The notes: generated by a model not told the origin, from the sequence alone. Positions 488 through 27,922 are shown, numbered from the stretch's first letter. The stretch: DNA of 64,000 nucleotides from Oligoflexia bacterium (GCA_028277945.1 JANQFH010000008.1:195442-259441); one strand, 5' to 3'. Program-made: numbers and translations.

Positions 488-2617
488 TCAAGAGCGCAGC
501 TGCGGGCCTGGTAGGCGGCTGTTGTCCTGGGTGCGCAGGGTGATCTTGTGCTGATCAAAGTACTCTAAAAAGGGTAGGGTGTACTTTCTTGAGGTGCGCG
601 TGAGCTGCTTAAACTCAGCCAGGCTCAGCATCTTGTTCTTATCAAAGTGATGTTGCAACTCAGTTCTGAGTTGGGCGATGGTTTCAGGGTGGGCATAGAA
701 CTCACCAGGTAGCCGCACCACCCGGTTTTCTCGCAGCAGCGACTTGATAAAACCAGCCGCCTTGGCCACAGGCACTTCCAACAGTTGTGCCAGCTCGCCA
801 ATATTGGGTGGGGTAAGCGCTGCCTTGGCAATAAGCGCTTCCATCTTTTCGGTGATCGAGGCGTTTGATGGCTGTGGCGCTGCTTGTTGGGCAAGTGGTG
901 GTGCCACTTTTTTGGAGGGCTCTTTGCCTTTGGTTTGATAGTCCTCGATCTCTTCGCCCACTAGCCTCAACCCACCATCGTCACTCTGTTGGATTTTTTT
1001 ATCCCTGTTGAGCTGCGTGAGCACACGTTTGAACACAGTTGTAGGCAGTGCCCGTCCCATCTTCACCCGCAGCGACTCTTGGTTCATGACTGGATCCTCA
1101 GGGTGGCTCTGTTGGTAGTGTTGCAACTCTGCAATGGCGCTGTCACACAGCTGCTGCAAACTGACCTCGCTTAGCAGTGGCGTTTGCCATTGTGCCGTCT
1201 CTGCCTGGTTGTCTTGCTGTTGCTTCTGCTTATGCTCCAGCGCTGCAACAATGCGCCCTTGCAGCAACTCCTCCTCCAGTGCCAAGGTAATGGTCTCCGG
1301 TGGGCGATCAAAGAAGCGCGCCAACTCTGCTATGGTACAACCGGCGCTGCCCGCACGTTGGATGAGCATCCCTGCAGCTACGGTTAGTTGCTCTTCATCA
1401 TCGATAAAATCTTGCAGTGTCTGCAGTTGTTGCCTCTGCCAACGACTACCGAGAAAACGTTTTTGCTCGTTGATCGGCACCAAGACTCTACCACCACCAA
1501 TGGTCGTCACCGGTGTTTGGCTACGCAGAATCACGGCATCGCCCAATTTCACAAAAACTGGCTCGTCTATTTTAATGAGCGCAAAGCTCTGCTCACCTGC
1601 CGGCAATTGTGGTTCAGCATAAAAACTCCGAAACAACAACCGCGCCCGGCTCTCAGCTGTGCCCCAGTGCAGTCGTACCCAGCTGTTGTGTTTGATGGCG
1701 TTGATATGGGGTAATGTCTTTATATGGACAAGCAATTGCGTGCTCGGTTGCACATTATCTGCAGTGGTAAGGCAGAACCCACGGTTGATTTCATGGGCAT
1801 CGGCGTGTTGCAGGTTGAGCGCCAAGCGCATGCCTGCCTCTCCCACCTGCAGCGGCTGCAGAAAAGACTCTATCTTACGTAGGGTAGTCTCCACCGCACC
1901 GGGAAAGAGTTGCAGCTTATCTCCCAGCCGCACTCTACCCCGGTAGCCGCTACCGGTGAGAACCGTACCAAAGCCTGGTTTAGAAAAGACCCGGTCCACA
2001 TAAAGGCGAAACGGCGCACTCAATCGGTGTGGCTTGGGTTTTGTTTTTGTGAGTTGTTGCAGTTGCTGCTTGAGTGCATCCACACCCTCACCGCTCACAG
2101 CACTGGTAGCAACAATCGGCGCCCCCTCCAGAGAGCTACCCTCTACCAACTTGGTAATCTCTTGGCGCCGCTGATCAATTAAGGTATGCCGTTCAGAGTC
2201 AGCCACACAGTCAATGCGGCTGATGGCAACCACCGCTTTATCAATGCCAAGCAGATTACAGATGTGCACATGCTCTACAGTCTGCGGCTGCACCCCTTGA
2301 TCTGCCGCCACCACCAACAGCAACAGATCCATGCCATAAGCACCGGCCACCATGTTCTTAATAAAGCGCTCATGTCCTGGCACATCGACAAATCCAAGCA
2401 GCCTGCCATCCTCCAGCGGCAGCGGCGCAAACCCCAGATCAATGCTAATACCGCGCTCCTTCTCCTGCGGCAGCTGATCGGTATCCGCACCCGTGAGCGC
2501 CTTAACCAGGGCACTCTTGCCATGATCAATGTGCCCCGCAGTACCGACAATCCACTGCTTCTTGAGCGTTGCTGCTTGCATAGCGGCAGTGATACTAATA
2601 ACCCATGCAATCGGCAA
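488..2617 (-). CDS. selB: selenocysteine-specific translation elongation factor SelB
   Basis: 709-aa ORF; N-terminal GTPase with G1 motif [11 protein letters not shown] and DVPGH G3 region, long C-terminal extension typical of SelB. Start is either TTG at 2617 (GGAG 9 nt upstream) or ATG at 2581. Confidence 0.85.
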
Positions 2618-3146: not shown

Positions 3147-3569
3147 CTAGTTCGCTAGCAGATCTCTCAAAATGGGTAGCGCTCTTTTTATTTGATCAAG
3201 TGTCGTCCAGGTTGGGTTGGCTGCTTTTGGAGATTCATAGCGTTGGTAGGCAGAGACATCTATACCTATTTTATCAGCAACCTTTTGTTGGGTGAGTTTG
3301 CTCTTAAGACGGCTCATCCGAACCAGCATTGCAATTTCCACCCTAGGATGAACCTTTATCCGCACAATATTTTTCCCTCGAACAGACTTCTTCGGCAGTG
3401 GAAAAATGTATTTGGAATCCTCTGGTTCACTTAGATAAAGATTGAGAACTTCTTCCATTCTTTCCTGCAGTTCCTTTTTGGTTTTAGCGTGTGTAAAACA
3501 GCCATCGAGCTCTAGTCCTTGAGCCCAATAGGCATTGCCTTCCTTATGAACTTTGAAATGATAGTGCAT
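3147..3569 (-). CDS. hicB: HicB-family antitoxin with C-terminal helix-turn-helix
   Basis: 140-aa ORF 9 bp downstream of hicA on the same strand; C-terminal HTH-like segment LTQQKVADKIGIDVSAYQRYE. Confidence 0.7.
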   Translation of the reverse strand: MHYHFKVHKEGNAYWAQGLELDGCFTHAKTKKELQERMEEVLNLYLSEPEDSKYIFPLPKKSVRGKNIVRIKVHPRVEIAMLVRMSRLKSKLTQQKVADKIGIDVSAYQRYESPKAANPTWTTLDQIKRALPILRDLLAN

Positions 3570-3578
3570 GACGCTCTT

Positions 3579-3773
3579 CTATTTTCTCTTTAATCCTAGC
3601 TTTTTACGAATCGACATCTCAGTTCCCTTTGGCAAATCTTCGTTTGCATGTAATGGAATACTGACCGGTTTATGGCCTTCTTTTACAACAATGACATGAC
3701 TACCTGTCTGCCGATCCTTACGCCATCCCTCTTTTAGAGCCGCCCGCAATAGCTTCTTTCCACTTGTTGGCAT
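3579..3773 (-). CDS. hicA: HicA-family mRNA interferase toxin
   Basis: 64-aa basic protein with the HicA/YcfA-like core (QTGSHVIVVKEGH); paired with hicB. Confidence 0.75.
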   Translation of the reverse strand: MPTSGKKLLRAALKEGWRKDRQTGSHVIVVKEGHKPVSIPLHANEDLPKGTEMSIRKKLGLKRK

Positions 3774-3906: not shown

Positions 3907-5727
3907 TCAAGTTTCTGTTATCGAAATCGGCACATAGCCAACGAGTTCTTTTGGGATGATGCCAACAGAGAGTTTGGCACATCGTTGCTGAAGAGGTTTT
4001 TCTTCATAACGATTGGTCACTAAGATACTCTTTTTGGCAATTCCGAGGCTTTCGATCAGGTCAAGACCGTTCTCTTGCTCTCCAGCAAGTTCATAGTCCA
4101 TGAGAAACAGCGACGACCCATTGTGTTCCAACTGTGAGCAGTCGACTTTAAAACTCTTGGCTGAGCGATAGTGCCGGATGTTCAAGTTCACTCCGTTCAA
4201 CTCCTGCTTAAAACGATAGTCCCATGTTTGGTGTACCGACTGGTCATCGTCAAGAACGATTGCATCCATCCCTTGACTCACCTGCAGGCTAGGTACGAAC
4301 CAGGAGGCCGGGGCGGTTCTCGGCAGCACAAGCGTCACGCAAGTACCCTGGCCAACCTCGGAGTCTATACTGAGATTGCCATTCCACGATTCAAGGGCCT
4401 TACGAGCCTGATAGAGACCAAGGCCCGAGCCTCCTTCTTTGTTATAGGTAAATCCGCGCTCACCGAGTTGGCTGAGCACATCTTTGGGAATGCCTTTACC
4501 ATTATCTCGAATAGTAATCCTGATCTTATCCTTGTCTGGAGGTTTATTATCGTTTTTACTAAGTCCAACTTCTATCAATCCTCCTTTGGGCATTGCCTCA
4601 ACGGCGTTGTTGACAAGGTTGGAGATGACTCGCTTAAAGGTCTTGGGGTCTATCTTGGAGAACAGTCCGTAACAGCTGGGTTCAAAGGTGTCCCGTATCT
4701 GCAAGTCTGTCCTCTCTTTAAACTGCATACGTTTTTCAGAGAGAACGCGACTGACAAGGCTGCTGAGTAGTACAGCCTCTCTTTGGCTGACCTCTGCTTT
4801 CTGGCTATCCATGGTGTCTTCTTTTCTTTTATTTAAATCATTGGCAACATCTCGAATTCTGTCGATAACACTGCGAATCAGCGTGCGTACCTGTTCAGGC
4901 AGATCAACGCAGATGTTGGTTACTGTGTCTAAGGCAGTCAAAGGAGATTGGATATCGTGTGCTACCTGTGTGGCGATCTCTCCCAAGGCCGCGTCCCGCT
5001 CCTTTTTCAAAAGCTCATGTTGCAGCTCGGTGATCTTTTCGCCTACCTCATTGATTGTCTTGTCTATCTCTTTTGATTCAGAGAAGAACAGTGGCGGCAC
5101 AGGTGGCGAGTCATGACGTCTGGCAAGGCCCTTGACGCGACTACGAATCGACAGGATTTCACTCCTAAAAATACGAAACTTTCTATGAGCAATGTAGGAG
5201 GATAGCAACAGTAGCACGGCAAGGGCGACTGTAGTGTAAAAAATAAACTTGTTTTGCAAAGAGCGTAGAAAACGGATGTCAGATACCAAAAATAGCCGCG
5301 CTTGAAGATGTTGTTTCCCGCCAACCATGGTGTGGAAGAAATCAGCCGTTTTATATATGAAGTCTTCGGAGTTTTGGTATTGATCTAGCCTGTTGCTTGA
5401 AAAGAAGCTGCATCCGGTATCGGTGCCGTTGCTGAATGCAAGGCACTGTTGCTCATTATCAAGCAAAAATGCCGCCTTGATATTGCTCAACCCTGAGAGC
5501 GTTTTGAAATACTCCTCTGCAGGCAGGTAGTCTGAATAACTCACCGATTTAGCGATAGCCCAGCGGGTCTGAGCAATAATGACGTCGAACTCCTTGAGGT
5601 AGTTGTCCTTTAGAATCTTCGGCACATAGTAAAAGGCAAGAAAGGCACCAAAGAGCAATAGCACAAGCTGACTACTTAAAATCCCAAGCAGGACTACCGT
5701 TGAAATCGATTGATGGTGCGGTTTCAT
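3907..5727 (-). CDS. hybrid sensor histidine kinase (two TM helices, periplasmic sensor domain, HisKA, HATPase_c, C-terminal receiver)
   Basis: 606-aa ORF; H-box VAHDIQSPLTAL, N-box NLVNNAVEA, G-boxes DNGKGIP and GSGLGL; C-terminal REC-like region (VLDDD ... LFLMDYEL ... ILVTNRY). Paralog of 22314..24110 and 35658..37493. Confidence 0.85.
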   Translation of the reverse strand: MKPHHQSISTVVLLGILSSQLVLLLFGAFLAFYYVPKILKDNYLKEFDVIIAQTRWAIAKSVSYSDYLPAEEYFKTLSGLSNIKAAFLLDNEQQCLAFSNGTDTGCSFFSSNRLDQYQNSEDFIYKTADFFHTMVGGKQHLQARLFLVSDIRFLRSLQNKFIFYTTVALAVLLLLSSYIAHRKFRIFRSEILSIRSRVKGLARRHDSPPVPPLFFSESKEIDKTINEVGEKITELQHELLKKERDAALGEIATQVAHDIQSPLTALDTVTNICVDLPEQVRTLIRSVIDRIRDVANDLNKRKEDTMDSQKAEVSQREAVLLSSLVSRVLSEKRMQFKERTDLQIRDTFEPSCYGLFSKIDPKTFKRVISNLVNNAVEAMPKGGLIEVGLSKNDNKPPDKDKIRITIRDNGKGIPKDVLSQLGERGFTYNKEGGSGLGLYQARKALESWNGNLSIDSEVGQGTCVTLVLPRTAPASWFVPSLQVSQGMDAIVLDDDQSVHQTWDYRFKQELNGVNLNIRHYRSAKSFKVDCSQLEHNGSSLFLMDYELAGEQENGLDLIESLGIAKKSILVTNRYEEKPLQQRCAKLSVGIIPKELVGYVPISITET

Positions 5728-5736: not shown

Positions 5737-6675
5737 TCAAGAGATAGGGTGAAGCGCTGCATGTCGTGGTTGGCAAGCATAGCCCAGGCCCTGGGCACGC
5801 TTTTTGTTAATTTGAATCTCGTTCTCGGAAAAGAAGAGCTCTTGTAAACCATTGGAGAACGCCTGGCAGACAACTACGGAAAAAAATGGCAAGAGCTTTT
5901 GTTTGGTAAAGACAAATTCAACATGGATACGGCTTTTTCGCAGGCTATTCTCCAGCTCTCTAAGCGAGTGGTTTGGAAGGCTGGATTCATCAAGTTTCTT
6001 AATGTCATAGTCGGCTGGCGAAAAAGGCGGTATTTCTGTACTGCATACGGTCGGCACGACAAAGGGGAGAATATGCCAGAGGTTGCCACGGATATCTGTG
6101 GGTGGAGGGACATTGCGTGAGTCATAGAGGAGCAGAGCCTCTTTTAGTGCTTTATCCTTGGCTCTGGCCAGATCAAACGCCGCACCAAAACCGTAGCAAC
6201 GTTGTTTCTCAGCAGAAGCAATCTCAGTCATGACCACATGAATGGGAAGATCATGGGTGAGATAGAAGAGGCGAACGTTTTTGTCTTGGTTATGATCGAT
6301 TTCCCATAATACTTTGTTATAGAAGACGGATAGCAGAGCTTGATCGCGCTCAGCCAGTTCGATTAGCGCTGCTTGTCTTGCCTCATTACGGTTGAAGTGG
6401 CAACTCAGGCCGTTGGTGGTTGGCTTGACAGGTTTTGCGTAATAGTGATGTCGCTCCACACACTCCATCAGTGCCGTCAGTTGTGCCTGATAGGGATCTA
6501 AGGCGACACCCACGCCAGCTACCCGATCGTCTCGTCCCTGGGCGTAGACACGGTGCCAGGTGAGGTTGTTAAAGCGAATCTCTTTGTGGGCGAGCGTTTT
6601 GACGATTCCCTGCTGCTGTTTAAGAGTACCCGCAATAACGAGGTTAAGTCGAGCTCTCTGCAGCAGTTGTCCCAT
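5737..6675 (-). CDS. short YcaO-like domain protein
   Basis: 312-aa ORF carrying both YcaO signature segments, ALMECVERH and NGLSCHFNRNEARQAALIELAERD (compare E. coli YcaO SALGEYFERLS and SNGMSAGNTRNEARVQGLSEVFERY, recalled from memory); sits between an SBP5 gene and a histidine kinase gene. Confidence 0.6.
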   Translation of the reverse strand: MGQLLQRARLNLVIAGTLKQQQGIVKTLAHKEIRFNNLTWHRVYAQGRDDRVAGVGVALDPYQAQLTALMECVERHHYYAKPVKPTTNGLSCHFNRNEARQAALIELAERDQALLSVFYNKVLWEIDHNQDKNVRLFYLTHDLPIHVVMTEIASAEKQRCYGFGAAFDLARAKDKALKEALLLYDSRNVPPPTDIRGNLWHILPFVVPTVCSTEIPPFSPADYDIKKLDESSLPNHSLRELENSLRKSRIHVEFVFTKQKLLPFFSVVVCQAFSNGLQELFFSENEIQINKKRAQGLGYACQPRHAALHPIS

Positions 6676-6688: not shown

Positions 6689-8248
6689 TCATGGAGTTGC
6701 CGGCAGAGCAGTTCTTGCCAGCCTCATATCCGCGAAATTGATGTTAAACTCCCACTCTGGCATGTGAGATAGATCGATTTTGGAGGAGGCATAAAAGGGT
6801 GTGGCCAGAAAATAGTAGGGAATAACAAAGCCCTCTTCTAGCATATAGCGGCTGATCTCTCTTGCCATTTGGATACGCTCTTTGGTGTTTCCTGTGGACC
6901 TGGTTGCTTCAATCATCTTATAGAGCCTGCCATCGTTAGGATCACGCACATAAAAGTCATCTGGACCAAAGTCTAGACGAAACACCAAACAAGGGTCTCC
7001 TGGTGGTATGGGTATAATACGGGACCCAAGATCAAAGCCTTGTCCCTGCAATCGGGCTTGTTTCATGGAACTACGAGATAGGGGGGTCATCTCAATTTGA
7101 AATCCATACGCTGAGAGATCATTGATTAATAATAGATCTCTCTTTGTTCTCTTATTCCAAACGTCTGGGTACATATATCTCAACGTCAAAGGCTCCTCTC
7201 TCAACCTGGCATAGATTGCTGTAAACTCTTTGGTCGCAGGTAGTGGGGCTTCAATGCGGCCACTAAAGCCGGGGGGAAAGAACTGATCAGAAGGAGCGTA
7301 AAGAAGTGAGTTACCGAATCTCTTGTGTTGGTGCTCTATGAGAGCTGCAGCAAAGGCAAGCCGTAGGGTTTTGTCCTTAAGGGGGCCTGTAATCGCATTG
7401 ACATAAACAATACGGCTCCAGTTACGTTTTGGTATAAACTGCTGAAAACGCTTTACCCTCTCTTGATCCTCTCGTTCTACTAGTCTATTGCGCTTATCTA
7501 AGAAGATGTCTGTTGTGCCTGCTAAAAGACGCTCCACAGCCTCCAAATCGTCACGCTCATAAACAATAACCGTCTGTGCTCTCTCGCCCCGTGGCTCAAA
7601 CCACTGCTCATGCCACTGCAACTTCACATAGTCCTTACGTTTCCACTCCACAAACTTGTAGGGTCCGCCTAACACAGGAAGCTTTTCTTTATGATAAGGC
7701 TCGTTCTCTGGATAGATCTTCCTCGGTACAACACCAGTACCTGGCATGGCTAGAATAAAGAGAAAGTACTCATAGGGGTTCGATAGGTTAAACTCCAAAG
7801 TGTGTTTGTCGATCATACGAATGGCTTTAGAATCTTTCTTTGGATCGACCCAATCAAAGAGCACGTACTCGGGCCAGTTAGTCTGTTTTCTCTTTAAGGA
7901 GAAGATAACATCTTCAACAGTGATAGGTGAGCCATCGTGAAAGAAGGCATCTTTTCTGATGGTGATCTCATAGCGTCTGCCACCATCATAAGAGCGCCAG
8001 CTCTGAGCTAACATGCCTATCAATGATTGGTCTTCGGCAATAGCAAAGAGGGTGATGGAGGTGCTGTTCAACATATACCAACCGCTGTTGGTCATATTTG
8101 CAGCTGGATCAAGAAAAGCTGGAAAATGATCCAGGTCCAACTTGATTGTGGAGCGGTCATCGCTTTGCAGCTGAGGCAGAGAACTGGCAAAACAGACAGC
8201 CGAAAGGAGTCCTAGGATGCCGACGGCTTTAAAAATCAATCTTTTCAA
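6689..8248 (-). CDS. family-5 extracellular solute-binding protein (peptide/nickel-type SBP), orphan
   Basis: 519-aa ORF with TTG start and N-terminal signal peptide; SBP_bac_5-like length and motifs; paralog of 24097..25611, 37483..39021 and 43334..44740; no ABC permease or ATPase gene nearby. Confidence 0.8.
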   Translation of the reverse strand: MKRLIFKAVGILGLLSAVCFASSLPQLQSDDRSTIKLDLDHFPAFLDPAANMTNSGWYMLNSTSITLFAIAEDQSLIGMLAQSWRSYDGGRRYEITIRKDAFFHDGSPITVEDVIFSLKRKQTNWPEYVLFDWVDPKKDSKAIRMIDKHTLEFNLSNPYEYFLFILAMPGTGVVPRKIYPENEPYHKEKLPVLGGPYKFVEWKRKDYVKLQWHEQWFEPRGERAQTVIVYERDDLEAVERLLAGTTDIFLDKRNRLVEREDQERVKRFQQFIPKRNWSRIVYVNAITGPLKDKTLRLAFAAALIEHQHKRFGNSLLYAPSDQFFPPGFSGRIEAPLPATKEFTAIYARLREEPLTLRYMYPDVWNKRTKRDLLLINDLSAYGFQIEMTPLSRSSMKQARLQGQGFDLGSRIIPIPPGDPCLVFRLDFGPDDFYVRDPNDGRLYKMIEATRSTGNTKERIQMAREISRYMLEEGFVIPYYFLATPFYASSKIDLSHMPEWEFNINFADMRLARTALPATP

Positions 8249-8458
8249 GTTGTGTACTTCTAACTTAGGTTTTAGTGTTCTCTCTAATAATATGAAGAAC
8301 TTCTGTCAACGGGTACTTTTCATCAGCAACTCAACCAACACAAATGTGTTTCATTTTTAGACAAGTTGTTTCGTAAGACGACACTTAAATGATGGTTCAA
8401 TCTAGCTTCGAGAGCTTGACCCTGTCTATAAAATAAGCAATCATCCTGGGTTAAGAGT

Positions 8459-8965
8459 ATGAGGCGATGGTTTTATGAGCTAACCATATTCGGAACCATC
8501 CTTACCAGTTTGAATGCCTATGCAGTGAGTGAGGAGTGTGCGGCCTTTTTCCAGAACAACAACATTTATCCTGGTGCCGATTGTGAATTGTCGTGTGCAA
8601 CTTTGCCGACATCAATGGCTACGTTTGGTTGTCCCGCTCAGTGTCGCGAATACTGTCGTTCCCGGACATTAGCGACAGAACCCTCCAAATCGAATGAGCC
8701 TTTAGATAGCTTGCCAATGGATGAAGAAGAGCGTCGGCAGCGCCTTAAGGAGTTTGCTATAGAAGAGTTCAAGAGTGAAAACCGATGCAACGCCTTGGCC
8801 AATATTGTCGATGAAGCCTCCAGGCTCATTGGGAGTGAGGAGAACCCCTCAAAGACCATGCTTGAGGATCTTAAAGAGGTGCTAATTGGAGAAGGGCTTC
8901 ATGAAGGTCGAGGGAAGGGGCCATATTTTGCTGGTAATGTCTATGGCGCTTTGGTGACGTCCTGA
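8459..8965 (+). CDS. secreted cysteine-rich protein of unknown function
   Basis: 168-aa ORF; signal-peptide-like N-terminus then 7 Cys within about 45 residues (CAAFF...CELSCATLP...CPAQCREYC), acidic C-terminal half. Confidence 0.4.
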   Translation: MRRWFYELTIFGTILTSLNAYAVSEECAAFFQNNNIYPGADCELSCATLPTSMATFGCPAQCREYCRSRTLATEPSKSNEPLDSLPMDEEERRQRLKEFAIEEFKSENRCNALANIVDEASRLIGSEENPSKTMLEDLKEVLIGEGLHEGRGKGPYFAGNVYGALVTS

Positions 8966-9716: not shown

Positions 9717-10907
9717 ATGTCTCATCCAAAACCAGAGTCTCCAGCGCTTATGGAGCCGATGCTTCCGGCTGCAGGACAATCCTCGCAACTCGAGGATCTT
9801 GCTGTTGATCTCATTGCCAAGGGCAGTAGCTTTCACAGCCTTTTGCCCACGAACCTACAGACAGGCATTGCGGATCTGGTGCGCTCGATGAACTGCTATT
9901 ACAGCAATCTCATCGAAGATCATCACACCCACCCCCGCGACATTGATCGCGCTCTAGCAGATGATTTCTCTACTGAACCAAAAAAGAGAGCCTTACAATT
10001 GGAAGCCAAAGCGCACATTGAAGTACAACGCCTCATGGATCATGGAGGCATCCCCGCCAATCCAACGACGTCTACATTTATTACCTGGATCCACCGGAAG
10101 TTTTGTGAGCGTTTGCCCGACAATCTTCTATGGACTGAAAACCCTGACAGTGGAGAACGTCTTCGCATCCACGCAGGCAAGCTCAGACAAACTAATGTCA
10201 TAGTTGGTCGCCACCTTGCGCCTGAGGCAAAAAATCTCCACGCTTTTCTGGCTCGCTTTCAAGAGGCCTATGATCTACAGCGCCTTTCCAAAGTGCAACA
10301 GATCCTCGCAGTCGCTGCGTCACATCATCGGTTACTGTGGATCCACCCTTTTCTCGACGGCAACGGTAGGGTGGCACGTCTCTTCTCGCATGCGCTCTTG
10401 TTGCATCTGGGTATTGGCAGTTCCCTTTGGTCAGTATCACGCGGTCTAGCCCGTAGCGTCGACGACTATAAAAGCATGCTCATGCAGGCAGATCAGCTGC
10501 GCCGCAATGACCATGATGGTCGTGGTACGCTCTCCCAACAAGGGCTGATGGATTTTTGTGGCTTTTTCTTGGCCACATGTCTTGATCAAATTGAGTTCAT
10601 GCGCTCTCTGTTAGAACCTAAAGAGCTTCTAAATCGTGTTGCTGTTTATACCGAAGAAGAGATGCGTGCCAAGAGACTTCCAAAAGGGAGTCTGGCGCTA
10701 TTGCGACATGCCATACTGGTTGGCGAGATTGCGCGCCATGAGCTCTCTGGCATTACGGGTTACAAAGAACGTCAGGCTCGTAATGTATTAAAAGAACTAT
10801 TAGCTAAAAAACTCCTTTACTCAGCAACTCCACGTGGCCGCGTGCGTCTGGGTTTTCCTATTGAGGTGGTAGAGCGCTGGTTCCCAACCCTCTACCCTGG
10901 AGTCTAA
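9717..10907 (+). CDS. fic: Fic family protein (probable AMP transferase) with C-terminal winged-helix-like region
   Basis: 396-aa ORF with canonical Fic motif HPFLDGNGRVARL; AT-rich promoter-like region upstream (9540..9716). Confidence 0.85.
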   Translation: MSHPKPESPALMEPMLPAAGQSSQLEDLAVDLIAKGSSFHSLLPTNLQTGIADLVRSMNCYYSNLIEDHHTHPRDIDRALADDFSTEPKKRALQLEAKAHIEVQRLMDHGGIPANPTTSTFITWIHRKFCERLPDNLLWTENPDSGERLRIHAGKLRQTNVIVGRHLAPEAKNLHAFLARFQEAYDLQRLSKVQQILAVAASHHRLLWIHPFLDGNGRVARLFSHALLLHLGIGSSLWSVSRGLARSVDDYKSMLMQADQLRRNDHDGRGTLSQQGLMDFCGFFLATCLDQIEFMRSLLEPKELLNRVAVYTEEEMRAKRLPKGSLALLRHAILVGEIARHELSGITGYKERQARNVLKELLAKKLLYSATPRGRVRLGFPIEVVERWFPTLYPGV

Positions 10908-12392: not shown

Positions 12393-12515
12393 ATGAAGGA
12401 CGCAAAAAAGACAAAACGTCAACAGTCTAAGTCGTCAAAAAAAATCTTTTCCCCTATTAAGGACAAGCTGTTAGATACAGCTATGTCGACTATCACATAT
12501 GATGTAACTGGCTAA
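12393..12515 (+). CDS. candidate precursor peptide (40 aa): MKDAKKTKRQQSKSSKKIFSPIKDKLLDTAMSTITYDVTG
   Basis: ATG preceded by GGGAGG at 4-nt spacing; lysine-rich N-terminal part and Ser/Thr-rich C-terminal part; 93 bp upstream of the HExxH and YcaO-like genes. Confidence 0.35.
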   Translation: MKDAKKTKRQQSKSSKKIFSPIKDKLLDTAMSTITYDVTG

Positions 12516-12608
12516 GTAGGCAACGAAAATAAGACAACGAAGCTAAGTATGGGAGTGGATGGTCTCTGCTCCCGTACCTTCAAGCCAGGCATATGAGAGA
12601 TCGATTTA

Positions 12609-13601
12609 ATGTGTTTAGAATATCATTCCGCCCCAGGAAAATTATCACCTTTTGTGCTTCGAAAAAATTTTCAAGGATATTTGGTTAAAAGCGCTATTTC
12701 CTACATTAATGAAGTTCAGTCGTCTTTAAAATTGGACCTCAACCACATAATATTAAAGTTATCCAGCCTAGATCAAAACCAGAAATTTTCCCCCTCTATC
12801 TATACAGGGTATCACATACTACAGTCAGCTTACGATAGTCAGAATAAAACCCTTGTGTTGGATGCCCTTCATTTCTTGGTTCAGTATTGCAATGATAAAG
12901 GTGGTAACAATAACATTGATTATTCAACTATACTTACAGAACCATATGAGAATCATTGTATAGACACTTTTCGAAAATCGAACCCTAAAGATGACTTCGG
13001 CGTGCCAGCTTTTGACGTTGTAGAAATGTTTCCAATACTGAATGTTAAAAAATATAAAATTCCTCCGTCTAGCCTTAAAAAGGCTGAAGAAATATTATCG
13101 CTGATTGATATGGATTTATGGAAAGAGTATCAAGCTTACGTTTCTATCTTAAAGATCTTCCAAGGAAAGAGTCTTCAAGGTGGAACAAGTCTCAACTGTT
13201 TTGGTACGGTATACCTGAGAATGCCTGAGGATTCCGAACATCCGGTACTCTACTTCCTGGAACATATTGTGCATGAAACCTCCCATTTGCATCTCTATGC
13301 ATTAGCCGGAGACAGAGACCTTGTTAGAAACGATTCAGCCTCTGTTTATGACTCGCCAATACGACACGACAAACGGCCCATTATTGGGGTATTTCACGCT
13401 ACGTTTGTTTTGGCTCGCTTAGTCCGTATATTTCAGCGCTACCTAAATCATTTTAGCAATGACTATCCAGAAGGAACTACCTTCTACAACAGAATAAGCA
13501 GAGACTTCAAAACCGGATACTCTATATTGAAAGAAAATTGTCTTTTTACAACGCTTGGGCGACAAATTTTTGATTCGTTAGATGATTGTACGAAAATTTG
13601 A
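12609..13601 (+). CDS. HExxH-motif protein (putative metal-dependent peptide-modifying enzyme)
   Basis: 330-aa ORF with HETSHLH motif and downstream RPIIGVFHATF segment; paralog of 26946..27779 (AHELGHH ... RPLFGIYHAAF); 3' end overlaps the next gene by 20 nt. Confidence 0.55.
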   Translation: MCLEYHSAPGKLSPFVLRKNFQGYLVKSAISYINEVQSSLKLDLNHIILKLSSLDQNQKFSPSIYTGYHILQSAYDSQNKTLVLDALHFLVQYCNDKGGNNNIDYSTILTEPYENHCIDTFRKSNPKDDFGVPAFDVVEMFPILNVKKYKIPPSSLKKAEEILSLIDMDLWKEYQAYVSILKIFQGKSLQGGTSLNCFGTVYLRMPEDSEHPVLYFLEHIVHETSHLHLYALAGDRDLVRNDSASVYDSPIRHDKRPIIGVFHATFVLARLVRIFQRYLNHFSNDYPEGTTFYNRISRDFKTGYSILKENCLFTTLGRQIFDSLDDCTKI

Positions 13602-14607
13602 AAGGAACGACCCTCTTGGAAATACCGCGTTTGGCAAACTACCTATCAAAAAACTGGTACGTGCTGCAGTCTTCCCTGATCGCTTTTTTGTAGGCAAAGC
13701 AGGTATCAAGCTTGTCAATTGGCAAGGAAATAATCAGTACCTTTGTGGCTTCTCATGCAGCAGACAACCGGCTATTGCCGAAAATGTAGCTGTTTTCGAA
13801 CTCTGTGAACGCTTGACAGCAAAGTATGAATTTCAATCTTTTCTGGGCACGAATATGAATACTTTCAGAGCGTTTACCTGGCCCGATGGGAATCCAGCTA
13901 GAGTGACAAAATCTCAATTATTCCTTGGTCCAAATCCATTTTCCCAATTTGGACAAGAGGCAACTGGCCTAGGTTTTGGCCCTGATTATCATCAAGCATT
14001 AAATCACGCTATTCTTGAATTGTTGGAGAGGCACATCTGCGCAGGTCTTTGGTATGAAGCAAAATATAGGCTATGCAAGGCAATCGACAGAGTATCTTTA
14101 GACTCCTTTGACATTTTCTACTATACCCTCCACAGACCGAAGATACCATTTGTTCTAGCCATTATATACTCGAATGAACTTGAGGTGCTTTCAGTCGGCC
14201 ATGCAATAAGATCTACGTTTGAGGAGGCGAAGGAAAAATCCTACTCCGAAGCAGTGATGCTGTTAGATTGTGTTCTCCACAAGGATAACGGTATCTGTAC
14301 CAATTTAAGAACTAAAAATCGTTTGCTTTCTCAAAGAGGTCCCTTAGCAAAAGAACGATTCCAACAATTTAACGATCTGACAGTAAACGTGGCAGCAGCA
14401 AAAAATATCCTAAGCCGATATTTTTCAATATCTGAGATTACTGCGGCGGTGCTTGGCACTAATGACGATATCGAAATTATTCAACTTTTCCGGGATAGAA
14501 ACTTCTGGTCTCTACGAGCACTTTCGAAGAAGGTGGCTACCTTGGCAGAACGTCGACAATCGAATCGATATTCAGAAAAACAAAAGATTCTGGACCCTTA
14601 TTGCTAA
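13582..14607 (+). CDS. short YcaO-like domain protein
   Basis: 341-aa ORF with YcaO signature segments VAVFELCERLTA and TGLGFGPDYHQALNHAILELLERH; overlaps the upstream HExxH gene. Confidence 0.6.
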   Translation: MIVRKFERNDPLGNTAFGKLPIKKLVRAAVFPDRFFVGKAGIKLVNWQGNNQYLCGFSCSRQPAIAENVAVFELCERLTAKYEFQSFLGTNMNTFRAFTWPDGNPARVTKSQLFLGPNPFSQFGQEATGLGFGPDYHQALNHAILELLERHICAGLWYEAKYRLCKAIDRVSLDSFDIFYYTLHRPKIPFVLAIIYSNELEVLSVGHAIRSTFEEAKEKSYSEAVMLLDCVLHKDNGICTNLRTKNRLLSQRGPLAKERFQQFNDLTVNVAAAKNILSRYFSISEITAAVLGTNDDIEIIQLFRDRNFWSLRALSKKVATLAERRQSNRYSEKQKILDPYC

Positions 14608-14619
14608 GATCAGCATACA

Positions 14620-15888
14620 TTAGAGCTTGTCGGAAATAAGGCTATATCTTTTGGCCGTGCTCCACAACAACAGTGTTGAAGCAAGCCCCACAATGCCAGA
14701 AAGACCAATTAACTTGCCTATGGCTGGATCGGCTTTCATAAGTACAGTGAAGATTACCATGGACAGTATATACCCGACTCTGCCATAAGCCTGTCCTTTC
14801 GATATTGAGTAGGTAAACCGATCTTGGCTAAATTGTGACTGAATCTTGTTTGAAAACATTATAAGGGAAACACCGTACAGGATACCGATAATGATCATTA
14901 GGGCAATAAAGGAGTCTCGAGAAGTTCCTCCAGCAAGAATTAGTGTTAGACTTAGAGCTACAAGAAGAAGAATCAATTTATGAATACTACGGAAGTACAC
15001 TTGAAATGCATTTGGGAAGAGAGTAATTGCGGTTAATGCTAGGAGGAATCCAAAGTAGATAGACGATGGACCTGAAAGTATTCGTGTAATTCCAGAAAGA
15101 TGTTTTGATGCTGCTAGCGATTGCATAAGAATAAAGGCAACCGCTCCAAAAGCTAAATTTGTCAAAAATAGAAACTGATTGTTCCATTTTAGCCAATGGT
15201 CGTCTTTTAAATCTATGATACGTTGATTTGCATTGTTCTGAAAAACATCAACCGATACTTGTTGCATACTGGTTATCTTTTTCATAAAGGATAGTAAAAG
15301 GAAGAGTCCAAGTAGAGAAATAAGGTAGGTTATGGAGTTTACGATGCAGACGACAGACCATCCACTAGTTAGCAGCAACGCTGCGACTGAAGCACTTACC
15401 ATGTTTACTCCACGATTTGCAGCATTCGAGAACGCTAAAGCTCTAGGTAGAGGGAAAAAATTATTCCTATCCAGGAAGATAGGAATAATGGTGGTCAGTT
15501 GTCTTGTTATAAGTGATAATGTACGCATTACTATCATCAGAGCGAGAAATAAGCCGTAAAATAGGTGCCTTGGAAGATATGATATTAAGATAGGCAGAAT
15601 GGTCAGTCCCATTAGGATAAATTCGATACATAGGGCGTAAAAAATTCTATCCTTGATATTTATAATGCGATCAATGTATTTTCCAAGAAAGGGTGCTAAA
15701 CCAATTTGCAGTATGGCATCTGTAGAGAACAGAATCCCCGATAACAATATTCCCGAACTATCGTCAAGAAAGAGTGCAACTGCGAAGAAAAGTAAAAGGC
15801 TATCCCCAAGTTTGGAAATAATCGATAAAGAAAGATACCCCCAAATAGGCGCCTTTGTCATGTTGTGGATTGGCTTTTCTCTATCCAT
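14620..15888 (-). CDS. MFS-type transporter
   Basis: 422-aa polytopic membrane protein (about 12 predicted helices), MFS-like loop motif GKYIDRIINIKDR; AT-rich. Confidence 0.7.
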   Translation of the reverse strand: MDREKPIHNMTKAPIWGYLSLSIISKLGDSLLLFFAVALFLDDSSGILLSGILFSTDAILQIGLAPFLGKYIDRIINIKDRIFYALCIEFILMGLTILPILISYLPRHLFYGLFLALMIVMRTLSLITRQLTTIIPIFLDRNNFFPLPRALAFSNAANRGVNMVSASVAALLLTSGWSVVCIVNSITYLISLLGLFLLLSFMKKITSMQQVSVDVFQNNANQRIIDLKDDHWLKWNNQFLFLTNLAFGAVAFILMQSLAASKHLSGITRILSGPSSIYFGFLLALTAITLFPNAFQVYFRSIHKLILLLVALSLTLILAGGTSRDSFIALMIIIGILYGVSLIMFSNKIQSQFSQDRFTYSISKGQAYGRVGYILSMVIFTVLMKADPAIGKLIGLSGIVGLASTLLLWSTAKRYSLISDKL

Positions 15889-15905
15889 ATACTATCATCA
15901 ACAAG

Positions 15906-16033
15906 GCAAGAATTAGGCCAATAGGAATGTCCGGTATTCCAATGGGTTGTAGATAGGTAACGCTTAGGAACAGTATGTCTGATATAGGACGCTCTGTTCA
16001 CCCTGAAGACAGTTTGTTTGTATTGCGAACAAT
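15906..16033. repeat. conserved ~128-bp operon-leader element, copy 1 (pairs with 28018..28145)
   Basis: About 80 percent nucleotide identity to 28018..28145 by eye; internal dyad symmetry (ACAG..GTCTGATATAGGAC..CTGT) and ACAGTTTGTTTG core; lies 17 bp upstream of the MFS start at 15888. Confidence 0.6.
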
Positions 16034-16149
16034 TGAGCCGTTGCCGGTCTGCCATCATGGAACCTCGCATCTGCCTTCAAGGTAAAGGTATACTCATCTC
16101 CTGCATCAGAGAGCAGCCCATTTTCTTGACCACAAACCAACGAACGCAT
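15964..16149 (-). pseudogene. internal fragment of a family-5 SBP gene (deletion remnant)
   Basis: Translation LLSDAGDEYTFTLKADARFHDGRPATAQ matches residues of the SBP5 paralogs (SDAGDEYTFTLNSDARFHDGSPVTAR in 43334..44740), then runs into the leader repeat; no signal peptide and no remainder of the roughly 500-aa protein. Confidence 0.5.
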
Positions 16150-17643
16150 CTAGCGTACCCACAAGACAGATGTATCATGTCTCGTTAGATTGATACTTTC
16201 AGGAAGCATGCCCGCAGAAGCACGATCATCGTGTACCAGGGTCTCAATAGCTCGGCCATCCGCAGATTCACCATGAAAAGCAAAGTAGCCACACCAATAG
16301 CTTAGTGGATCTGCCATGGCATTCAAGTAGGAATAGACATCTATGAGTTCAGAACGTAGCTGAGCAATCTCCGTTTCTGTTTCTCCAAGACCAAAACTCA
16401 GTTCTTCGATAGTCTCTTCCAAGTCGTGAGATGACCGCAAGTCGCCGCTGAAGCAGGTCGCAATAGCAGAAAGTCTTTCCTTCTCTAACCGGCTCAGCTT
16501 TCCTTCGTCGTGAAGTACTTGAACTTTTTGTCTAAACTCCTGTGGATTTTTCTCGATTTCCTCTACAGTAAAACTAATCGACTCTCTCTTATTTTCCAAA
16601 ATTGACAGGCCTCTCAGCGCGTCGATCAGTGTATCTATGACTACTACATCCTCGCCTTTCAAATCCTTGCGAAATTTTTCGAGACTTTGGACAGCCAATT
16701 CGACTGTCGCAAGACTTTCTCTAAAGTAGCTCCCCAGGGCCCTTCGAACAGTCATAGCATCTCCTATTAAAGAGACGAGTTCTCTTGAAGAGTCAGCAAT
16801 AGCCTCTAATCTTCTCAACCTCTGGCCTATTTCCTGACAAGGTTCGAGCAAAATTTTTCTTCTAGCACCTACTCTCAATATCAAGAGAGGAACATGATAT
16901 GGCCGATAGAACATCACAACTTCTGATAGGTCTGTCCTCGACCGCTCATCATATGAGCCCGTAATCGGATGAGGGTAGTATCGCCCTCGAAAATAATTAT
17001 CCACCACTCTTCTAATCAGTTCCCCTTTGAGACGAATTTCCAAAATTCCAGGCTCATCGATTTCAAAAGCTAGTTGAACAAACTCTGGACCAAGTTCAAA
17101 TTGCCTACCCATATCTGCATTTCTGTACATACCCCTATCGGCAAACATAATAGGTTCGCTTAGGGCAAAGTGGGAAACCCCATAATAAGCTTCCCTTTTC
17201 CTATCCCATCTCTTCAAGCTCTTCCAGGTAGTTAGAATGGTCTTTGAGTTTAAACGAACATCAACGTTTACCTTTAATCCGTCTAAACTCCTTTCCAGAT
17301 CGGTTCTCTCACCTCGCCGTTCTTCAAAACTTGCTCCAACAAAATGTAGATCTAGCTCCAAGAGGTACGGCCCTGGGCGAATGATTTTCACTCCTGGGAA
17401 CCTTAGTTCTTTGTTGCCATCTATGATATCAGGATAGTCCGAAGATAGACTGGTAATAAATCTACCGTTTTCCATCCTCCCAAAGAGTCGAAAATTAGTA
17501 ATATCAGCGTAGCTTCCAATTCTAGGACCACGAACTCCATGATAAAAAGTATCTCCAGCCTCTGCAGCACGATCACATAGCGCTACTAGTGCAACCAGAG
17601 ACAATAGGAGCCAATGGTACTTTTGTGTCTTTAGAATTATCAT
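16150..17643 (-). CDS. secreted hypothetical protein
   Basis: 497-aa ORF with N-terminal signal peptide; no recognised motif; the C-terminal end may be derived from the adjacent SBP5 remnant. Confidence 0.4.
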   Translation of the reverse strand: MIILKTQKYHWLLLSLVALVALCDRAAEAGDTFYHGVRGPRIGSYADITNFRLFGRMENGRFITSLSSDYPDIIDGNKELRFPGVKIIRPGPYLLELDLHFVGASFEERRGERTDLERSLDGLKVNVDVRLNSKTILTTWKSLKRWDRKREAYYGVSHFALSEPIMFADRGMYRNADMGRQFELGPEFVQLAFEIDEPGILEIRLKGELIRRVVDNYFRGRYYPHPITGSYDERSRTDLSEVVMFYRPYHVPLLILRVGARRKILLEPCQEIGQRLRRLEAIADSSRELVSLIGDAMTVRRALGSYFRESLATVELAVQSLEKFRKDLKGEDVVVIDTLIDALRGLSILENKRESISFTVEEIEKNPQEFRQKVQVLHDEGKLSRLEKERLSAIATCFSGDLRSSHDLEETIEELSFGLGETETEIAQLRSELIDVYSYLNAMADPLSYWCGYFAFHGESADGRAIETLVHDDRASAGMLPESINLTRHDTSVLWVR

Positions 17644-17648
17644 GCTAT

Positions 17649-18392
17649 TCAGTCTTTTCGCGGTGAAAAAATTACGCCCCCAAGCGTTTCAAAAGGCCTT
17701 CCTATATCTACATCTACCTTCAATACATCGCGGGTCTTGATTCTTGCCCAAAGCGTAGTCGGATCCACACGCCTTTCCTCTTCCATCCAAAACTCGTACT
17801 CGCGAACGAAGAATGCTGGAGAGGTAATATCCGCATCAAAAGCGTTCGGATTAAGATAGTAAATTCTAGGTACCCTATGTTGATGGACCCAATCTATGTC
17901 AGGTTTCTCACTACGAGGCCACTTGTGTGTTTCATAGTTGACCTCATCCACACGTGTTCCGTCGTAGCGGCGACTGTGTTTGAATGTTGCCTTGAGCTTC
18001 CGATTCTCTAGTGCTGATTTTATAATTTTGACTTTCCCAACTCCTGCATAGTGAAAAAATAGAATTACAAGTGCCGTTCGGCCTGAATCGATGTCCTGTA
18101 GAAGTTTCTGAGGAAGAACGGAATCTCTAATTTTATCCGTACCTTCCCTACTTAGGAAGTCAAAAAACCAAATTAGGAAGTCTGATCGAACGAAAAAGAA
18201 AAGTCGATCACCAACGGGATCATGAAATACAAGCGGTTCTTTTATAATCTCCTCCGCCTCGTTCTCGGAAAGCTTCACTCGATGAAAATATTTTGATTCC
18301 TTAATCACTTTGTCCGATGGAAAGTAAGAATCAGCATACAACACTGGCGTCACCACTATAAGAACACTCAAACACAACGTAAAGCGATACAA
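17649..18392 (-). CDS. secreted hypothetical protein
   Basis: 247-aa ORF with signal peptide, 5-bp gap to neighbours in a same-strand gene string. Confidence 0.4.
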   Translation of the reverse strand: MYRFTLCLSVLIVVTPVLYADSYFPSDKVIKESKYFHRVKLSENEAEEIIKEPLVFHDPVGDRLFFFVRSDFLIWFFDFLSREGTDKIRDSVLPQKLLQDIDSGRTALVILFFHYAGVGKVKIIKSALENRKLKATFKHSRRYDGTRVDEVNYETHKWPRSEKPDIDWVHQHRVPRIYYLNPNAFDADITSPAFFVREYEFWMEEERRVDPTTLWARIKTRDVLKVDVDIGRPFETLGGVIFSPRKD

Positions 18393-18395
18393 CTT

Positions 18396-19142
18396 CTACT
18401 CTCCAAAACCCTTCACAAAAAACTTCTCATCGATCAACCGCAGACCCTCATAGACCTCATACTTGATCAAGGCACCCTTGGTATCGCGGTAGAGCCCTTT
18501 GCGCACTTGTCTTGGTTTTTTGTAAAGGCCCTCAACCTTGCTCAAAAAGGCTGCCAGTTCCTCTCTACTAAAAGGGCCATGCCGTTCCCAATCGAGCCAA
18601 TCAGGGCCAATGGAGACCACCACCGATAGCTCACGGCTGCCAGGTTTTACTCCACCAAAGAGCTTCTTTGCCATCCTCTGACTGCCAAGCGTCAGGAGGT
18701 GCCAGTTGCGGCTTTCAAAATGCTCTCGCTTGTTCTGCTGATCCATAAACATAAAATAGACGCCTTCGCTCCAGGAGCTACGATCCAGATTGACGCCTTT
18801 TTTGAAGCGCTCTAAAAATGTTTTTAAATCGGCAGGTTGATCATGCCAATGCCGTATGATCCTTTTGATAAAAGACCAGGTTGAGATGACAGACATGCCC
18901 TCCTCATCTTGCGACTGATCCAGAGAGTCGAGTTTTTCTAATTCATAACCTCTAAACAGTTCCGAACCTGTATCAGGCTCTGTTACCAGCAGCAGAGCAC
19001 CATCTTTAAGTTCCACAGTATCTCCAAACTCTATAGGTCTTTCGATATCCTCAGGAACTCCAGGGATATCAATCACTGTATCTCCCTGCTGTGCAAAGGG
19101 AGAGTCTGGATGGGGGGGTCGTTTTTCTCTCTCACGCATCAC
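18396..19142 (-). CDS. hypothetical protein, possible immunity/partner protein for the upstream RES-domain protein
   Basis: 248-aa ORF whose start overlaps the stop of 19139..20923 by 4 nt; no signal peptide; acidic. Confidence 0.4.
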   Translation of the reverse strand: MMREREKRPPHPDSPFAQQGDTVIDIPGVPEDIERPIEFGDTVELKDGALLLVTEPDTGSELFRGYELEKLDSLDQSQDEEGMSVISTWSFIKRIIRHWHDQPADLKTFLERFKKGVNLDRSSWSEGVYFMFMDQQNKREHFESRNWHLLTLGSQRMAKKLFGGVKPGSRELSVVVSIGPDWLDWERHGPFSREELAAFLSKVEGLYKKPRQVRKGLYRDTKGALIKYEVYEGLRLIDEKFFVKGFGE

Positions 19143-25611: not shown

Positions 25612-25616
25612 TTGTG

Positions 25617-26933: not shown

Positions 26934-26945
26934 TATGATCTCTAT

Positions 26946-27779
26946 TTACACTTCTATTCTCTCTCTGACACCTAGCATAAACAACTTAATGTCCTTATCG
27001 AATTCCAGAAGACCAGATTTTGTAATAGTAGTAAGATCCTTTATATACTTGTTCTTATAACAATCTAAAATACGACTGGAACTCTGCTTGATTAACTCTT
27101 CTATCGAGTGATTCGAATGTATCCGCAAACCAAGTTCCAGCATGGCCGCCTCAGCAAAGGCTGCATGATAGATACCGAACAGTGGCCTTTTCATGTTTCT
27201 CAAAGCTGATCGGTCTTCTTTTGCCCATGGATAGCGATTCACTGTGGCTTCACTTTTTGTTGCAAAGACAATAGTAAGGTAGTGATGGCCCAACTCGTGA
27301 GCTAGAATTTCTGCCCACTTCACAGGGTCATCACTATTCATTACATATTCAATAAGTCCAAAGACTTGGGGATCAGAGGCTGATTCGTGTTCAACACCTT
27401 GCCTGGGAAAACACATTCTTGGTTTGATAATTTGCTCAAATGCAAATAGTTTCTTCCATACTACTCCGATAATTGTTCTTGCTGCAGAGTATAGTGCTTC
27501 TTTTTCTGGATAGCGTTGCAGTGAAGAATCAAAAATAATGTTACTGCCAACTACGAACTTGCTACGTGCGATATCACGAGTTATTAGATTGCTAACTTGG
27601 TCAGTTGACAGACTAAACTTATCACGATTGAAATAGATCCAAGAGAGAGTTGATAAGCTCAATTCTCTATTAATGTCTATATTGCGGAATGCTGGTATGA
27701 GCTTAAGAGCTTGCATTCCCTGCTGTCTAAATTGACTAACGTATTTTTTTGTCAGATCAATTGAGAATATAGAAGGCAT
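26946..27779 (-). CDS. HExxH-motif protein (paralog of 12609..13601)
   Basis: 277-aa ORF with AHELGHH and RPLFGIYHAAF segments; first long gene after the candidate precursor ORF. Confidence 0.55.
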   Translation of the reverse strand: MPSIFSIDLTKKYVSQFRQQGMQALKLIPAFRNIDINRELSLSTLSWIYFNRDKFSLSTDQVSNLITRDIARSKFVVGSNIIFDSSLQRYPEKEALYSAARTIIGVVWKKLFAFEQIIKPRMCFPRQGVEHESASDPQVFGLIEYVMNSDDPVKWAEILAHELGHHYLTIVFATKSEATVNRYPWAKEDRSALRNMKRPLFGIYHAAFAEAAMLELGLRIHSNHSIEELIKQSSSRILDCYKNKYIKDLTTITKSGLLEFDKDIKLFMLGVRERIEV

Positions 27780-27817
27780 TCATCATGCCAATTTTTTATT
27801 ACGTTTTAGTTGCCTCA

Positions 27818-27922
27818 CTACGACCCGGTAGGTATGCTAGCTAACTTAGCACCTAGCACACGGTGTGATTGAAAAGAGAAATTGAAGGAAACTGTCTTTT
27901 TACTTTCGTTGCTTTTTGCCAT
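27818..27922 (-). CDS. candidate precursor peptide (34 aa): MAKSNESKKTVSFNFSFQSHRVLGAKLASIPTGS
   Basis: Below the ORF-track size cutoff; ATG preceded by AGGAG at 7-nt spacing; stop lies 38 bp upstream of the HExxH gene start. Confidence 0.35.
   Translation of the reverse strand: MAKSNESKKTVSFNFSFQSHRVLGAKLASIPTGS

Follow-up and report, generated by a model that had tools for sequence, protein, structure and literature searches.

A compact YcaO-domain enzyme encoded between a peptide-type solute-binding protein and a sensor histidine kinase in an Oligoflexia bacterium

YcaO enzymes are known from the maturation of antibiotics, cofactors or proteins, and the described stand-alone representatives (McbD, the YcaO domain of LynD/TruD, MJ1094, the M. 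kandleri enzyme and E. coli YcaO; PF02624/IPR003776) have a length of 365-586 amino acids (aa). Signalling by modified peptides is textbook knowledge for Gram-positive bacteria, where Agr (AgrD/AgrB/AgrC), ComX/ComQ/ComP and nisin (NisBC-NisK) mediate autoinduction; to our knowledge, it is barely documented in bacteria that possess a periplasm. The control of a hybrid histidine kinase by a periplasmic binding protein is known from LuxP/LuxQ, the AI-2 sensing system of Vibrio. Here, we describe a YcaO-domain gene that is located on a stretch of 64,000 nucleotides (nt) from an Oligoflexia bacterium (GCA_028277945.1, JANQFH010000008.1:195442-259441). This whole stretch is called the window, and positions are counted from its first letter. 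The encoded protein, YcaO1, has 312 aa (5737..6675, minus strand, an ATG-to-TGA open reading frame, ORF). Its gene is the middle one of a tightly packed minus-strand operon with the order SBP1 > YcaO1 > HK1, in which the intergenic gaps around YcaO1 are 13 and 9 nt. An initial annotation had placed a YcaO-like gene of about 310 aa between genes for a solute-binding protein (SBP) and a histidine kinase; coordinates and flanks are exactly as described there. YcaO1 is a new compact form of a known enzyme, and its conserved association with a sensor pair is undescribed in the literature searched: full-text searches that combined YcaO with histidine kinase or binding-protein terms retrieved no such arrangement.

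The match of YcaO1 to the Pfam profile PF02624 is significant (58.3 bits, E=1e-15, gathering cut-off 25.7), which bears out the YcaO assignment made initially. It spans residues 83-181 only, corresponding to profile positions 112-228 of 325. YcaO enzymes possess three ATP-binding motifs, and all of them were found. Motif 1 (...TALMECVER) contains T67, E71, E74 and R75; motif 2 (TTNG...IELAERD) consists of the turn T87-N88-G89 followed by E106, E109, R110 and D111; motif 3 (GFG...KDKALKEA) contributes G162, G164, K175 and E179. The two signature segments noticed at first are therefore present, but their number was one too low. To set the ligand positions, YcaO1 was aligned by profile with MJ1094, M. 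kandleri YcaO, TruD and McbD; this alignment equates E106 with E167 of McbD and T87 with T148 of McbD. Replacement of E167 nearly abolishes catalysis in McbD, and its C-terminal Pro is likewise important for catalysis (PMC6395948); the role of E202 of E. coli YcaO as a ligand residue was taken from PMC13063428. The C-terminus of YcaO1 (...LHPIS) is not of the PxPxP type and contains one clade-invariant Pro two residues before the end; in having a Pro in this tail it is reminiscent of McbD. A phmmer search of YcaO1 against the sequences of the PDB gave nothing significant; the structural relatives came from profile and fold searches. Structure prediction, proposed earlier as a check, yielded a confident model with the YcaO fold that superposes on active enzymes. 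Hidden Markov model, fold and motifs thus all agree that YcaO1 belongs to the YcaO superfamily, and the retained residues suggest that it is a catalytically competent, ATP-dependent enzyme acting on backbone amides of peptides, which it would activate.

The defining features of the SagD/TOMM (thiazole/oxazole-modified microcin), TfuA-linked, methanogen and E. coli sub-families were tested and are lacking; YcaO1 therefore stands outside all four. It scores 45.2 bits with the SagD-type model TIGR03604 (cut-off 219.25), 19.2 bits with the methanogen-type model TIGR03266 (cut-off 365), and far under the cut-off with TIGR00702. The length of about 586 aa, the C-terminal dimerisation domain and the strongly acidic isoelectric point (pI) of the E. 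coli type are not found. Among the ORFs of the 64-kb window there is no E1-like/Ocin-ThiF partner, fused leader-recognition domain or FMN dehydrogenase of the kind typical of a TOMM cluster, and the operon contains no adjacent precursor with a Cys/Ser/Thr core. Genes for E1/ThiF-like proteins, TfuA or nitroreductases were not found among these ORFs either. In comparison to the known stand-alone enzymes, YcaO1 hence differs by an absent segment, by the lack of an E1-like or leader-recognition (RRE) partner, TfuA and dehydrogenase, by its C-terminal tail and sequence signatures (see below), and by gene neighbours that form a sensor pair instead of a biosynthetic cluster.

YcaO1 is small because an internal segment is absent. 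Motifs 1 and 2 are 35 residues apart, and each solved YcaO has about 50-60 extra residues at this position; the canonical relative P0011 carries about 95. Nor does YcaO1 have the second insertion, of about 14 residues, that the solved structures show after motif 2. The predicted model of YcaO1 comprises the YcaO core only.

The clade to which this compact form belongs is very rare. When 1.84 billion representative proteins were searched exhaustively with phmmer, only 14 matches at E<=1e-3 and four at E<=1e-10 were obtained. Index-based searches and a metagenome scan contributed a few further clade sequences, the latter yielding one locus (L009; loci are numbered in this way throughout). A word-indexed homologue search with YcaO1 alone matched the query only; with the clade alignment, it gave seven proteins, several of which are outgroups. 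No relative was detected in two scans of a species-representative genome collection (alignments A3 and A5), which did not recover the source genome either, and a tblastn search of YcaO1 against plasmids gave no match. P0016 from a thiopeptide-like cluster, the TfuA-linked P0017, which is a distant match only, and P0019 of the E. coli type do not belong to the clade and are outgroups.

Twelve clade members (284-364 aa; a truncated copy comes in addition) align end to end with 20-48% identity. Invariant are G89, E106, E109, R110 and P310; E71, R75 and E179 are nearly so, and E74 and K175 occur in ten of the twelve. The spacing between motifs 1 and 2 is 31-38 residues, again in ten of twelve members. 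Signatures that set the clade apart are His201, which lies in the loop after the motif-3 helix and is kept in all ten members that align there, and a QDLFF motif close to the C-terminus. Its tail is HP[IL]x, in contrast to the PxPxP of the known stand-alone enzymes. The pI values span 5.2-9.2. The conservation of the ligand residues across 20-48% identity argues for an active enzyme. An alternative is that YcaO1 lost its activity and now serves as a scaffold or kinase regulator, or is merely a chance neighbour. Its length, 50-95 residues below that of every solved YcaO aligned, would fit such a relic, as would the scores of the SagD, methanogen-marker and TIGR00702 models. However, the preservation of the Mg/ATP-ligand positions and of the C-terminal Pro at this level of divergence indicates purifying selection on the active site, the confident model superposes on active enzymes, and the synteny described below recurs in about ten independent loci. 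We therefore regard a relic as very improbable. P0012 is a copy of the compact YcaO that is truncated at the N-terminus (L014, 999..1742; also in L015 and L016). It is probably a disrupted remnant, since in L014 an HTH_17 gene and a phage-type integrase lie directly beside it.

The two partners of YcaO1 in the operon resemble a sensor pair. SBP1 (6689..8248, minus strand), the product of the first gene, is a periplasmic solute-binding protein of 519 aa that belongs to family 5 (peptide/nickel type, cluster C); it matches PF00496 (SBP_bac_5) with 123.2 bits (E=1.8e-35) and starts with a signal peptide (N-terminal sequence MKRLIFKAVGILGLLSAVCFASS). HK1 (3907..5727, minus strand) is a membrane sensor histidine kinase of 606 aa with HisKA (20.6 bits), HATPase_c (92.3 bits) and a receiver-like C-terminal domain. 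Between two hydrophobic segments, HK1 has about 125 aa that are presumably located in the periplasm. The pair thus consists of a gene for a secreted SBP that adjoins a membrane-kinase gene, with no ABC transporter genes in 64 kb.

This neighbourhood is conserved. All relatives with enough flanking DNA, at 20-48% YcaO identity, share the family-5 SBP; full-length or partial SBP1 homologues adjoin the compact YcaO in L002, L003, L005-L009 and L012. An orthologous, mostly hybrid histidine kinase stands beside the compact YcaO in nine loci, the window included. In the closest relatives, L002 and L009 (42-48% YcaO identity), the order is SBP C-terminus > YcaO > kinase N-terminus, and the flanking fragments are 51-56% identical to SBP1 and HK1. 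L012 has the order 58-aa secreted ORF > SBP_bac_5 > YcaO > hybrid kinase, and L003 the order kinase > 62-aa secreted ORF > SBP > YcaO. In L005 (GCA_040960375.1), YcaO is followed by a 53-aa ORF, a GNAT gene, the SBP and a hybrid kinase; in L006, from groundwater, by a 67-aa ORF, a 304-aa protein without family match, the SBP and a hybrid kinase. L007 begins with a divergent kinase, after which a 60-aa ORF > SBP > YcaO > GNAT are found. L008 comprises SBP > YcaO, and in L011 an upstream fragment without significant family match precedes YcaO > kinase. HK1 shows 33-36% identity with the L005, L006 and L007 kinases; the orthology extends through the cytoplasmic part and includes the C-terminal domain with DDDxSIHQxW...LFLxDYEL...ILVTSR, and a domain of this type scores as Response_reg in L005 and L012. 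The YcaO-linked SBPs align over their full length. More distant YcaO matches stand in ordinary thiopeptide-like or TfuA contexts; the association with SBP and kinase is therefore specific to the compact clade. Synteny in about ten independent loci also excludes a chance neighbourhood. The unusual placement, which the initial annotation had taken as a hint that the modified substrate is linked to signalling, is thus supported by the recurrence of the three-gene arrangement in distant bacteria.

Downstream of the kinase, L005 encodes three PALP enzymes, a NIL-domain protein, a JAB peptidase and a ThiS-like sulfur carrier (15748..20171). The ThiS-type carrier could in principle be the sulfur source for a thioamidation, or equally part of an unrelated Cys/Met biosynthesis operon. 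Kinases of the HK1 type were further found on Legionella and Cysteiniphilum plasmids (L013, L017 and L018). L013, located on the Legionella pneumophila plasmid NZ_CP011106.1 (133126..139066), has the order hypothetical protein, alpha/beta hydrolase, Peripla_BP_6-type binding protein, kinase, and a response regulator on the opposite strand adjoins. Its kinase is 36% identical to residues 227-601 of HK1, including the receiver-like domain. The locus looks like an enzyme, binding protein and kinase layout that was built from different parts.

With LuxP/LuxQ, and with TorT/TorS and GltB/GtrS (PMC7927077), the operon has in common that an orphan periplasmic SBP is encoded beside a hybrid kinase which sits in the membrane and has a periplasmic domain, and that a transporter is absent. 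Here, the SBP is of the peptide-type family 5, a tailoring enzyme is encoded inside the operon, and the contact between SBP and kinase is putative. Precedents exist for the handling of RiPP (ribosomal peptide with post-translational modifications) products by cluster-C SBPs. In the YejABEF importer, which takes up the YcaO-made phazolicin, YejA serves as the SBP, and MbnE, from the methanobactin system, is cited as a structural relative of YejA (PMC10128002). In both cases a family-5/cluster-C SBP handles a heterocycle-containing ribosomal peptide. However, these SBPs feed transporters (YejBEF and MbnT-linked uptake) and not a kinase, and no permease is present here. The same precedents raise the question whether SBP1 captures an external peptide for import, which YcaO1 modifies, detoxifies or activates inside the cell, with the role of the kinase confined to the control of the operon. 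Opp/Dpp/Yej-type importers classically use family-5 SBPs as their receptors, and azole peptides are taken up by YejABEF (PMC10128002). Against this, an ABC permease or ATPase gene was found neither in the 64 kb nor in the gene lists of those related loci that were inspected. The presence of four SBP_bac_5 genes in the window without permease or ATPase fits sensing, not uptake, and we consider import and processing improbable.

Taken together, a make-and-sense cassette, in which YcaO1 tailors a ribosomal peptide that is then sensed by SBP1 and HK1, is the reading that we favour, if tentatively. According to this model, the compact YcaO would modify a short, ribosomally made peptide in the cytoplasm. 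The chemistry would most likely be the cyclodehydration of Cys, Ser or Thr to an azoline, with backbone thioamidation or amidine formation as alternatives. The modified peptide would then reach the periplasm, in the relatives by means of its own Sec signal, and be bound there by the orphan SBP1. SBP1 would dock on the periplasmic domain of HK1 and switch the phosphorelay, and with it the presumed output, in the manner of LuxP-LuxQ. The proposed logic of a ribosomal peptide, a co-encoded modifying enzyme, export and a co-encoded histidine kinase is shared with Agr, ComX and nisin. In contrast to the present system, their kinases bind the peptide directly without an SBP, their enzymes are unrelated to YcaO, and their hosts have a single membrane; here, the host possesses a periplasm, the peptides of the relatives carry Sec signals, and the system is known from its genes alone.

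Candidates for such a peptide exist in the related loci. An ORF of 53-67 aa adjoins the SBP or YcaO gene in five of them (L003, L005, L006, L007 and L012). All five ORFs have a Sec-type N-terminus (for example MSVSKKVAITVASLIAASSAQA, followed by TETE...), and the two whose upstream sequence was read are both preceded by a good Shine-Dalgarno site. Export of the peptide by such a signal would account for the absence of a dedicated protease or exporter from the cassette. The mature part contains a single Cys in four of the five, and it is for this reason that an azoline is favoured.

A number of observations weigh against a peptide made and sensed by this cassette. The L012 peptide has no Cys, and with the exception of the L005-L006 pair the small ORFs of the relatives are not conserved in sequence. 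A Sec signal that acts as a RiPP leader would be unusual, and the compact YcaO has neither a leader-recognition domain nor a corresponding partner. The absence of 50-95 residues might affect substrate binding in a way that is beyond the reach of the model. For the window itself, all intergenic ORFs with a length of 15-90 aa and a strong ribosome-binding site were inspected, and no precursor-like ORF was found in or beside the YcaO1 operon; a small ORF with a Sec signal does not occur anywhere in the 64 kb, and tblastn searches with the peptides of the relatives gave no match there. The missing precursor is a real gap in the argument. The peptide gene would therefore have to be located elsewhere, or it has been lost. 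The YcaO1 operon also contains no response regulator with an output domain. Finally, every functional link derives from gene neighbourhood, and the known sequences of the clade number only about a dozen, most of them located on short contigs from metagenomes.

The lack of a peptide gene in the operon would be accounted for if the substrate were a protein. YcaO1 could place a thioamide or azoline on the unfolded pre-SBP before Sec export, or on a cytoplasmic segment of the kinase, and thus tune sensing instead of producing a diffusible signal. YcaO enzymes with folded-protein substrates are known: E. coli YcaO acts on uL16, as was shown experimentally without TfuA (PMC13063428), and methanogen YcaOs act on McrA (PMC5589413). 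Moreover, translational coupling is suggested by the gene borders: in L003, L007, L008 and L012 the SBP gene overlaps or directly adjoins that of YcaO, and in L011 there is an overlap between the YcaO start and the upstream gene. However, a comparison with the YcaO-less paralogues of the window (see below) revealed no Cys/Ser/Thr motif that is specific to YcaO-linked SBPs or kinases, and D418 and P477 are the only invariant residues of the YcaO-linked SBPs. The conserved GDPC of SBP1 had been considered as a modification site and was rejected, since this motif is restricted to the closest relatives. Given its pI range, the clade has no uniform charge bias comparable to that by which the acidic E. 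coli YcaO was paired with the basic uL16. A protein substrate would also leave the small ORFs of the five relatives unexplained, as well as the paralogous modules in which similar SBP/kinase pairs are combined with enzymes for small peptides and small ORFs of their own. It is thus an unlikely alternative.

These modules support the make-and-sense reading. The window holds two further SBP_bac_5 > hybrid-kinase pairs on the same strand as the YcaO1 operon (module 1), each behind a different peptide-tailoring enzyme and a small ORF. HK1, HK2 and HK3 are mutually 34-37% identical (HK1 and HK2, 37%; HK1 to its two paralogues, 36-37%). Module 2 (22314..27922, minus strand) begins with P2, a small ORF of 34 aa (MAKSNESKKTVSFNFSFQSHRVLGAKLASIPTGS; 27818..27922) with AGGAG 7 nt before its ATG. 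It is followed by an aKG-HExxH peptide beta-hydroxylase (26946..27779; TIGR04267, 43.6 bits, cut-off 40), an MFS protein (25617..26933), SBP2 (24097..25701; SBP_bac_5) and HK2 (22314..24110; HATPase_c), all on the minus strand. Module 3 (35658..40258, minus strand) consists of P3, a small ORF of 27 aa (MKKRRREYIDLDKLEKIVVIRGVTVGI; 40175..40258) with AGGAG 6 nt before its ATG, a DUF4135 protein of the LanM-dehydratase type with 363 aa (39039..40130; PF13575, 39.7 bits, cut-off 29), SBP3 (37483..39042; SBP_bac_5) and HK3 (35658..37532; HisKA and HATPase_c), again all on the minus strand. The DUF4135 protein matches region 447-480 of the LanM model. The recurring order is small peptide, tailoring enzyme, sometimes an exporter, periplasmic peptide-binding protein and hybrid kinase.

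A separate RiPP-like cluster (12393..15888) has no SBP or kinase of its own. It comprises Pb, a small ORF of 40 aa (MKDAKKTKRQQSKSSKKIFSPIKDKLLDTAMSTITYDVTG; 12393..12515, plus strand) with GGGAGG before its ATG, an aKG-HExxH peptide beta-hydroxylase (12609..13601, plus strand; TIGR04267, 66.4 bits), the short YcaO2 of 341 aa, whose gene overlaps that of the hydroxylase (13582..14607, plus strand; PF02624, 37.2 bits), and a convergent MFS gene (14620..15888, minus strand). YcaO1 and YcaO2 share only a 23-bit motif match and are not close paralogues. Among the small ORFs between the genes of the 64 kb, just four have a strong Shine-Dalgarno sequence, and three of these, P2, P3 and Pb, lie directly upstream of tailoring enzymes. 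With YcaO2, a small ORF, a hydroxylase and an MFS gene about 7 kb from YcaO1, the neighbourhood does have RiPP-type genes. The initial statement that no precursor or partner is visible nearby consequently holds for the operon, and for E1-like, TfuA and dehydrogenase genes throughout the window, but not with respect to this cluster.

The Pb cluster offers another explanation for the missing precursor. Its product could be the ligand of SBP1 and HK1, and YcaO1 would then add a second modification to Pb or to a peptide encoded far away. The cluster possesses precursor, enzymes and exporter without SBP and kinase, module 1 shows the converse, and the two are only about 4 kb apart; combined, they would correspond to module 2, which displays the full order peptide > enzyme > MFS > SBP > HK. 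On the other hand, they lie on opposite strands and are separated by four unrelated genes, including that of a Fic protein. They also differ in G+C content (0.40 for the Pb cluster versus 0.47), and elsewhere the compact YcaO accompanies SBP and kinase without HExxH or second YcaO genes. A sensor shared with the Pb cluster is for these reasons doubtful.

If the make-and-sense interpretation of module 1 applies, a wider generalization is conceivable, which we put forward with more reserve. The locus may represent a hitherto unrecognized way in which double-membrane bacteria signal from cell to cell by peptides: a YcaO of minimal size would act on a peptide whose Sec signal serves both as leader and as export tag, and the resulting heterocycle- or thioamide-containing peptide would be read by an orphan family-5 SBP and a hybrid kinase. 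It would belong to a broader family of modular circuits that combine a RiPP-tailoring enzyme with a peptide-binding protein and a hybrid kinase; three such circuits, with YcaO, aKG-HExxH hydroxylase and LanM-type enzymes, would be present in this window. The sensor-linked clade would then tie YcaO chemistry to signal transduction, and the threefold occurrence of tailoring enzyme, periplasmic peptide-binding protein and hybrid kinase would make the question testable with few genes. Independently of signalling, the clade may define the smallest natural YcaO core. If so, about 50-95 residues between motifs 1 and 2 would be dispensable, which would be useful for understanding and engineering amide-activating enzymes.

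The 210 nt upstream of SBP1 (8249..8458, minus strand) are non-coding and presumably form its promoter region. They contain just a weak TTG ORF of 25 aa (8323..8400) without a ribosome-binding site, and none with a strong Shine-Dalgarno sequence. A promoter and terminator scan gave a number of sites no higher than expected by chance; one promoter-like site lies upstream of SBP1 (8428-8399). Opposite to SBP1, a divergent gene (8459..8965, plus strand) encodes a protein of 168 aa that carries a signal peptide, has several Cys among the approximately 70 residues at its N-terminus and matches no family. The 25-aa TTG ORF and this Cys-rich secreted protein are no more than tentative precursor candidates for module 1; the latter might alternatively be its substrate or ligand.

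Divergent from module 3 (41114..44740, plus strand) are genes for an MFS protein, a protein of 267 aa without family match, and the fourth orphan SBP_bac_5 (43334..44740, plus strand), which is 42% identical to SBP2. Neither a tRNA gene nor an Rfam match was detected in the whole window. Genes of the toxin-antitoxin or addiction type are dense; they encode HicA/HicB, Fic, a RES-domain protein, HipA and two PIN-domain proteins (3147..3773, 9717..10907, 19139..20923, 50651..51907, 58138..58536 and 61998..62596), and the second PIN-domain gene is preceded by an ORF of 59-61 aa with a strong Shine-Dalgarno sequence. This density suggests that the window is a variable, genomic-island-like region. 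It further encodes a CHASE2-domain adenylate/guanylate cyclase (29208..31196, plus strand) and the selenocysteine elongation factor SelB (488..2617, minus strand).

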